Part shown: positions 25,601-27,334 of the stretch, piece by piece
How the letters are laid out: each line of letters starts with the position of its first letter
Numbering within the stretch: the stretch's first letter is position 1
DNA from: Escherichia coli
GTDB taxonomy: Bacteria > Pseudomonadota > Gammaproteobacteria > Enterobacterales > Enterobacteriaceae
Assembly: GCF_003334315.1 (NCBI RefSeq)
Contig: NZ_QOWR01000063.1
DNA length: 27,334 bases
Direction: 5' to 3' (one strand)
Program-made: the position numbers

Positions 25601-27334
25601 TCGTGATATGACAGTGAAGGTTAATAACCAACTGGCTAATGGACAGTCTGCTAACCAGATAACCCTGACCGTCGTGGACAGCTATGGTAACCCGTTGCAG
25701 GGGCAAGAAGTTACGCTGACTTTACCGCAGGGTGTGACCAGCAAGACGGGGAATACAGTAACAACCAATGCGGCAGGGAAAGTGGACATTGAGCTTATGT
25801 CAACGGTTGCGGGGGAACACAGCATCACGGCCTCAGTGAATAATGCTCAGAAGACGGTTACGGTGAAATTCAAGGCGGATTTCAGTACCGGTCAGGCGAC
25901 CCTGGAGGTTGATGGCAGCACGCCAAAAGTGGCAAACGACAATGATGCCTTTACGCTGACGGCAACGGTTAAGGATCAATACGGCAACCTTCTGCCTGGC
26001 GCTGTGGTCGTCTTTAATCTGCCTCGGGGCGTCAAACCGCTTGCAGACGGTAATATCATGGTGAACGCCGACAAGGAGGGTAAAGCGGAACTGAAAGTGG
26101 TCTCCGTGACTGCCGGAACGTATGAGATCACGGCGTCGGCAGGAAATGACCAGCCTTCGAATGCGCAGTCTGTAACGTTTGTGGCCGATAAGACTACGGC
26201 GACCATCTCCAGTATTGAGGTGATTGGCAACCGTGCAGTGGCGGATGGCAAAACCAAACAGACGTATAAAGTTACGGTGACTGATGCCAATAACAACCTG
26301 TTGAAGGATAGCGACGTGACGCTGACTGCCAGCTCGGAAAATTTAGTTCTGGATCCTAAAGGGACGGCGAAAACTAATGAGCAAGGACAGGCTGTTTTCA
26401 CCGGCTCTACCACTATCGCAGCGACATATACACTCACGGCGAAAGTGGAACAGGCCAACGGTCAGGTATCGACGAAAACTGCTGAATCTAAATTCGTCGC
26501 GGATGATAAAAACGCGGTGCTCGCCGCATCTCCAGAACGTGTAGATTCTCTGGTGGCGGACGGGAAGACTACTGCAACAATGACGGTTACCCTGATGGCG
26601 GGAGTCAATCCCGTAGGAGGAAGTATGTGGGTCGACATTGAGGCTCCGGAAGGAGTGACGGAGAAGGATTATCAATTCCTGCCGTCGAAGGCTGACCATT
26701 TCTCAGGTGGGAAAATCACGCGTACATTTAGTACCAGCAAGTCAGGTGTCTATACGTTCACATTCAACGCACTGACGTATGGCGGGTACGAAATGACGCC
26801 TGTGAAGGTGACAATTAACGCCGTTGCTGCAGAGACTGAAAATGGCGAGGAGGAGATGCCATAATTTGAATAGTATGAAAGGGTAATGACTCCAACTTAT
26901 TGATAGTGTTTTATGTTCAGATAATGCCCGATGACTTTGTCATGCAGCTCCACCGATTTTGAGAACGACAGCGACTTCCGTCCCAGCCGTGCCAGGTGCT
27001 GCCTCAGATTCAGGTTATGCCGCTCAATTCGCTGCGTATATCGCTTGCTGATTACGTGCAGCTTTCCCTTCAGGCGGGATTCATACAGCGGCCAGCCATC
27101 CGTCATCCATATCACCACGTCAAAGGGTGACAGCAGGCTCATAAGACGCCCCAGCGTCGCCATAGTGCGTTCACCGAATACGTGCGCAACAACCGTCTTC
27201 CGGAGACTGTCATACGCGTAAAACAGCCAGCGCTGGCGCGATTTAGCCCCGACATAGCCCCACTGTTCGTCCATTTCCGCGCAGACGATGACGTCACTGC
27301 CCGGCTGTATGCGCGAGGTTACCGACTGCGGCCT

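Follow-up and report, generated by a model that had tools for sequence, protein, structure and literature searches.

An IS1A element inserted 17 bp downstream of an intact fdeC (eaeH) adhesin gene in Escherichia coli

IS1 prefers AT-rich targets, and the classical gal-region deletions are an example of the deletions that it produces. Turlan and Chandler reportedly found in 1995 (EMBO J 14:5410) that IS1 makes replicative adjacent deletions, and IS1-related nfsB deletions are said to have been described by Wan et al. in 2023; PMC12428005 cites both works. Adjacent deletions and recombination between insertion sequences are the usual causes of absent target duplications (PMC11708052). FdeC as published is a protein of 1,416 amino acids, and the adhesin gene is interrupted in E. 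coli K-12 (Nesta et al., 2012; PMC3324786). In strain MG1655, an 888-bp eaeH pseudogene is followed by IS3A and then by a truncated ykgA (eaeH'-IS3A-'ykgA); both this arrangement and the publication agree with the original prediction, which stated that an insertion sequence interrupts the gene in K-12. Draft contigs L017 to L021, which encode exactly the FdeC protein of the DNA analyzed here, retain fdeC in full together with its native flank, and the left end of an IS3 lies inside ykgA, ~462 bp past the stop codon. This arrangement is the likely precursor of the K-12 locus, in which case the K-12 truncation would be a leftward IS3 adjacent deletion.

The DNA examined in this study (27,334 nucleotides, here called the window) is the entire draft contig QOWR01000063.1 of GCA_003334315.1. 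It harbors fdeC on the plus strand (22608 to 26864) as an intact inverse-autotransporter adhesin open reading frame (ORF) of 1,418 codons plus TAA, and direct reading of the sequence places the stop codon at 26862 to 26864. The ORF is open throughout, as originally claimed, and differs from RefSeq WP_000020219.1 ("inverse autotransporter adhesin FdeC") by one base and one residue, a T instead of a C at position 26742 (plus strand) that makes codon 1379 TCA (Ser) instead of CCA (Pro) (Pro1379Ser). Pfam domains IAT_beta, Invasin_D3, and Big_1 are on record for exactly this protein, and its top NCBIfam matches are inverse-autotransporter families. The N-terminal inverse-autotransporter beta domain, the repeated Big_1/invasin-D3 Ig-like domains, and the expected length (~1,416 to 1,418 amino acids) identify the product as FdeC/EaeH. 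The coding sequence is untouched by IS1. On the 5' side of the gene, strain SY3626 has an additional ISKpn26 (IS5-like; L001, 2528 to 3723), inserted ~220 bp before the fdeC start and apparently flanked by a 4-bp duplication; the site corresponds to 22388 to 22391 of the window, which has no ISKpn26.

Other parts of the contig were also inspected. A prophage-like remnant occupies its start (1 to 5404) and encodes a major-head-like protein (77 to 1105), a tape-measure-like protein (1409 to 3241), a tail-fibre or endolysin-like protein (3275 to 3988), and a tyrosine integrase on the minus strand (4070 to 5404). The best complete E. coli genome is only ~95% identical to this remnant, and SY3626 lacks it at this site. 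The gene for the ECP fimbrial usher, ecpC (15060 to 17584, minus strand), is present as two overlapping ORFs of 405 and 489 amino acids, and is annotated as frameshifted in the related strains SY3626 and ST12468 as well. Just 3' of yagU, on the plus strand (11865 to 12063), lies a full-length match to Rfam IS009 (RF02111), with 195 bits against a gathering score of 117.

The stop codon of fdeC is followed by 17 bp of native 3' flank, tttgaatagtatgaaag (26865 to 26881, plus strand), the same as in genomes without the IS1 (L002, L004, and L017 to L021). For a simple insertion, the target duplication would consist of the last 9 bp of this spacer, gtatgaaag. The right terminal inverted repeat (IRR) of IS1, GGTAATGACTCCAACTTATTGAT (26882 to 26904, plus strand), begins directly thereafter, which confirms the predicted distance of 17 bp; the same end bounds a complete 768-bp IS1 in relatives. 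From 26882 to 27334 the window contains the IRR-proximal 453 bp of the 768-bp IS1A, on the minus strand, and the contig stops within the element. The minus strand from 26897 to 27334 encodes the C-terminal 145 codons of the IS1 transposase (insB part) and matches NCBIfam NF033558 (transpos_IS1) with 138 bits against a cutoff of 100, over profile positions 82 to 199 of 199 (118 positions), so the transposase is directed at fdeC, again as predicted. All 453 bases are identical to those of the 768-bp IS1A of SY3626, and RefSeq names the element in relatives "IS1-like element IS1A family transposase." Two features therefore assign it to the IS1 family: a terminal inverted repeat of ~23 bp, with the IRR in the window and the left repeat (IRL) in relatives, where the IRL end reads ...GCAGCATCACC / ...AGTAAGTTGGCAGCATCACC, and an IS1-type DDE transposase (InsAB'), of which the C-terminal part lies in the window. 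The gene insA and the frameshift site fall beyond the contig end, and a "programmed frameshift" is annotated in relatives, where elements with the same junction have the full length of 768 bp. No Rfam family matched 26865 to 27334, and the literature on fdeC and IS1 yielded only gene lists in whole-genome surveys, with no description of this junction. The element is a known IS1A with known behavior, already annotated in RefSeq genomes, and adds no new biology in itself. Because the window is the whole contig, the sequence simply ends within the IS1 repeat: the right end of the window is not a biological boundary but the point at which the assembly broke off within a multicopy repeat, and the repeat accounts for where the draft contig stops.

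We searched 5,426 complete E. coli genomes with a 100-bp probe centered on the junction. The probe matched in 33 genomes, 28 of them at 100% and 5 with the IS1 one base further from fdeC (+18). Those five are pig ETEC/STEC genomes with a simple insertion, a 9-bp duplication (tatgaaagt), and intact ykgA-rclCBA-rclR beyond. The uninterrupted native site was found at 99% identity or more in 1,432 genomes. With 28 carriers among 5,426 genomes against these 1,432, the +17 insertion is rare and lineage restricted. In genomes without the IS1, the site reads ...gccataatttgaatagtatgaaag followed immediately by ttacgatctaataaagaataatggtgttgaaatattcaacgccattattcactgaataccttgcctgatactgattaaatagtatcaggcaagg... 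and then convergent ykgA. Comparison of the 3' flanks shows that the 17-bp spacer is native sequence. The window differs by 1 to 3 bases in 6.2 kb from the complete genomes that share the exact junction, by 8 mismatches in 15.6 kb from SY3626, and by 1 mismatch in 6.2 kb from K-12 MG1655. Literature on the junction-carrier strains mentions only their plasmids and gives no lineage name.

Across the 28 complete genomes that share the exact +17 junction, neither a target-site duplication nor the native continuation is present beyond the IS1. Nearby simple insertions of IS1 do have 9-bp duplications (tatgaaagt at +18 and ggcgaggag at -11), so a duplication would be expected at +17 as well if the insertion there were simple. 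The missing duplication is what is expected of a deletion derivative and does not count against the identity of the element as IS1. In SY3626, the 768-bp IS1 is directly joined to ccgcactggaggataacg..., which is ykgE from nucleotide 192, and is followed by ykgF, ykgG, ykgH, and betA. Its left flank (gtatgaaag) and right flank (ccgcactgg) differ over these 9 bp, and there is therefore no target duplication of 8 to 9 bp in this relative. Compared with the intact locus, 5,637 bp are deleted: ykgA, ykgQ, rclC, rclB, rclA, rclR, and the first 191 nucleotides of ykgE. Since rclA is present in 5,116 of the 5,426 complete genomes, its loss is a minority state.

A probe for the second junction (the IRL of IS1 plus ccgcactgg... 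in ykgE) matched in 28 genomes, 25 of which also have the +17 junction. In 23 genomes, the two junctions lie exactly one IS1 (768 bp) apart, that is, they carry the 5,637-bp deletion. In strain 2018-11-3CC, which is represented by two records, the junctions lie ~63 kb apart on opposite strands, beside tauABC, an arrangement that is consistent with an IS1-bounded inversion. The other carriers of the +17 junction have other partners: in PSS-12 the IS1 is joined to rclA by a 3,329-bp deletion that leaves rclR and ykgE in place, in TOE3 it is joined to the betA-proximal intergenic region upstream of betA, and in RCAD0514 it is joined to yahL. In the three genomes that carry the ykgE junction alone, the missing DNA is on the fdeC side: the final 164 bp of fdeC in L6-21, the whole gene in ST12468, where the left partner is on the ykgR side, and a stretch reaching ecpR in PI12. 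With both probes, no complete genome was found with a simple-insertion state at +17 or at ykgE nucleotide 192.

These arrangements have the properties of an insertion-sequence breakpoint. Flanking DNA is missing, with an IS at the joint and no duplication, in 26 of the 28 +17 records (23 with the 5,637-bp deletion and 3 with other deletions), and the remaining 2 records are the single strain with the inversion. One end stays fixed as the partners vary: the +17 end is joined to ykgE, rclA, the betA side, or yahL, and the fixed ykgE end is likewise joined to fdeC lacking its last 164 bp, to the ykgR side, or to ecpR. The original prediction that the IS1 may mark a rearrangement breakpoint is thus borne out in all 28 complete genomes with the exact junction. 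Its proposed checks, run in relatives, gave the same answer: the far IS1 end abuts non-native DNA, with a duplication in 0 of 28, and synteny beyond the element is disrupted in 28 of 28. An old and neutral insertion, with the same IS1, target duplications, and conserved synteny throughout the relatives, was seen in none of the 28.

Taken together, we consider it probable that, in a K-12-like lineage, a standard IS1A entered the AT-rich region between the convergent genes, 17 bp beyond the stop codon of fdeC and with its IRR toward fdeC, and became a rearrangement breakpoint there. The IRL end would then have been joined without duplication to ykgE nucleotide 192 with the removal of 5,637 bp, a step that is shown in relatives and inferred for the window's genome. 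Two routes lead to identical end products, and the 5,637-bp deletion may have arisen by either: intramolecular replicative transposition of IS1 ("adjacent deletion"), or homologous recombination of one IS1 copy with another that has the same orientation. The same IS1 would later have anchored further deletions in both directions, and the inversion, in individual strains. A novel joint, no duplication, and a fixed end with variable endpoints on both sides constitute a textbook IS1 outcome.

The IS1 of PSS-12 at the +17 junction (L006, 5051 to 5818) departs from IS1A at 23 sites, and the last 125 bp account for 16 of these: positions 1 to 324 (IRR proximal) are identical to IS1A, positions 325 to 507 are IS1B-like, and positions 642 to 765 form a more divergent segment with the 16 further differences. 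This mosaic points to homologous recombination between IS1 copies in that strain. Because PSS-12 retains rclR and ykgE, it cannot descend from the ykgE-deleted state, and the +17 IS1 must therefore once have stood beside an intact right flank, unless the PSS-12 insertion is independent.

The far side of the IS1 lies outside the contig, and the evidence for a breakpoint comes from relatives. A joint reading ccgcactggaggataacgacg after the IRL would denote the 5,637-bp deletion into ykgE, and gtatgaaagttacgatct / gtatgaaagttacgatctaat would denote a simple insertion with a 9-bp duplication. The 132-amino-acid product expected of the truncated ykgE, which frameshifted copies of ykgE elsewhere yield as well, occurs in 238 blocks of the collection and does not single out GCA_003334315.1. 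The T26742 allele of the window occurs in none of the complete genomes with an IS1 near fdeC but is common to draft contigs L015 to L021, of which L015 and L016 combine it with the +17 junction and L017 to L021 with the native flank and the IS3 inside ykgA at +462. The Pro1379Ser SNP thus cuts across the presence and absence of the +17 IS1. This distribution indicates that the sub-lineage of the window is not directly represented among the complete genomes, and because its closest T26742 relatives, L017 to L021, do not have this IS1, it could hold a separate and possibly simple insertion.

This raises the possibility that the IS1 of the window is a simple, neutral insertion with a gtatgaaag duplication and intact ykgA-rcl-ykgE beyond it, independent of the deleted complete genomes. 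The simple insertion one base along in the five pig genomes, the otherwise native flanks of T26742 contigs, and PSS-12, whose rclR and ykgE imply that the +17 IS1 once coexisted with them, would all fit. We nevertheless judge this improbable, as the native continuation or a duplication occurs in 0 of 28 complete genomes with the exact junction, and the window is only 1 to 3 bases in 6.2 kb away from those genomes. For the genome of the window we accordingly expect, with good confidence, that the DNA beyond the IS1 is deleted or otherwise rearranged. The junction could also have been created during assembly, by misextension of the contig into the repeat or by a chimeric join, and the window is indeed a draft contig from short reads, with its end in a multicopy repeat. 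The identical junction is found, however, in 28 complete genomes as well as in independent draft and Logan contigs, and we rejected an assembly artefact as having a negligible probability.

A further question is whether position +17 is a true IS1 hot spot, with the same nucleotide hit repeatedly in different backgrounds, and not the site of one ancestral insertion. The junction is found on at least two fdeC haplotypes, PSS-12 and the window being separated by 15 SNPs and one 1-bp gap, and in PSS-12 both the IS1 sequence and the right-hand partner are different. The presence of the IS1 does not follow the T/C polymorphism at 26742, clearly independent copies are present at other nearby positions (99 genomes altogether), and the target is a trough of 23% GC, which fits the AT preference of IS1. 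On the other hand, recombination within fdeC could have spread a single ancestral junction to different haplotypes, one SNP says little about independence, and the IS1 of PSS-12, with 324 IRR-proximal nucleotides of IS1A and a mosaic remainder, fits IS1-IS1 recombination after a shared insertion. The counts used here are of positions and haplotypes in genomes. Repeated insertion at this one nucleotide thus seems doubtful to us, and a rearranged ancestral +17 IS1A remains the preferred reading.

The insertion also changes what follows the adhesin gene. The native fdeC-ykgA intergenic region has 139 bp and 31% GC, falling to 23% in the 40 bp around the insertion point, against 52% in fdeC itself. 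It contains two hairpins, one located 33 to 67 nucleotides past the stop codon (16-bp stem, -21.3 kcal/mol, z = -5.2) and the other at 76 to 111 nucleotides (15-bp stem, -25.2 kcal/mol, z = -8.3). Both are distal to +17, the first beginning 16 bases beyond the insertion point, and the IS1 end that takes their place has no comparable structure (z = +1.5). A scan for canonical intrinsic terminators gave no hits in the native flank or in the window, and neither hairpin has a canonical U-tract; we therefore refer to them as candidate 3' structures rather than proven terminators, which may act as terminators or as mRNA stabilizers. The IS1 separates the two hairpins from the 3' end of fdeC. As the native flank no longer follows the gene, any fdeC transcript must run antisense into IS1, and an altered formation of the fdeC mRNA 3' end is predicted from the sequence. 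The claim that the native terminator has been removed or displaced is thereby supported in structural terms by two strong hairpins beyond +17, for which a role in termination is inferred.

An IS1 in the orientation of the window lies within ~700 bp of the fdeC 3' end in 99 of the 5,426 complete genomes, in a survey that detects the orientation of the query only. The apparent positions relative to the stop codon are approximately -11, +17, +18, +66, +128, +193, +211, +250, +271, +277, +437, and +453. The copy at -11 lies inside fdeC (duplication ggcgaggag), and in the +128 class the DNA from ykgA through the end of rclR is missing. An orientation bias of IS1 near fdeC, suggested by the shared orientation of all nearby copies, was considered and rejected, since the joined-hit search detects only the orientation of the query. 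These multiple positions and the IS3 in K-12 suggest, as a hypothesis, that the AT-rich fdeC-ykgA interval is a favored target of insertion sequences, and that insertions there have repeatedly cost E. coli ykgA and the rcl locus. We put forward only as a speculative and rather unlikely extension that the interval is a recurrent IS1/IS3 target that drives parallel loss of rclABC/rclR and ykgEFG in K-12-like commensal and multidrug-resistant E. coli. If true, this would imply either a structural hot spot, even at the same nucleotide (+17), or selection for the loss of rcl and ykgEFG with the adhesin kept.

The relevance of the locus lies mainly in annotation and strain comparison. Despite their intact fdeC, members of this lineage are probably without the RclABC/RclR defense against reactive chlorine and without a functional ykgE; the RclABC/RclR hypochlorite response and the YkgEFG (LutABC-type) complex are predicted to be lost. 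FdeC is a vaccine-candidate adhesin. In this lineage the intact ORF has a replaced 3' end and adjoins an active IS1 that, in sister strains, has already removed fdeC partly or completely, so possession of the gene is unstable in the lineage. The locus is also a clean natural illustration of nested IS1 deletions.

Our results can be placed next to three known systems. The element of the window is identical over its 453 bases to the IS1A of E. coli K-12, including the IRR and the C-terminal region of InsB; it is thus no different as an element, and what is specific is its location and the absence of a target duplication from the copies in relatives. The K-12 arrangement eaeH'-IS3A-'ykgA concerns the same locus and also has an insertion sequence between fdeC and ykgA that is linked to a deletion. 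In K-12, however, the element is an IS3, the deletion is leftward, and 888 bp of the adhesin gene are left, whereas the window has an IS1 and an intact adhesin gene, and the deletion in its relatives extends rightward into ykgE. With the known adjacent and recombination deletions of IS1, the locus shares a fixed IS end, a variable other end, no duplication, contiguous loss, and an inversion variant. It differs from them in that these are natural isolates and not selected laboratory events, in that both sides of one element have been deleted, and in that the end product carries no signal of the mechanism, except for the mosaic IS1 of PSS-12.
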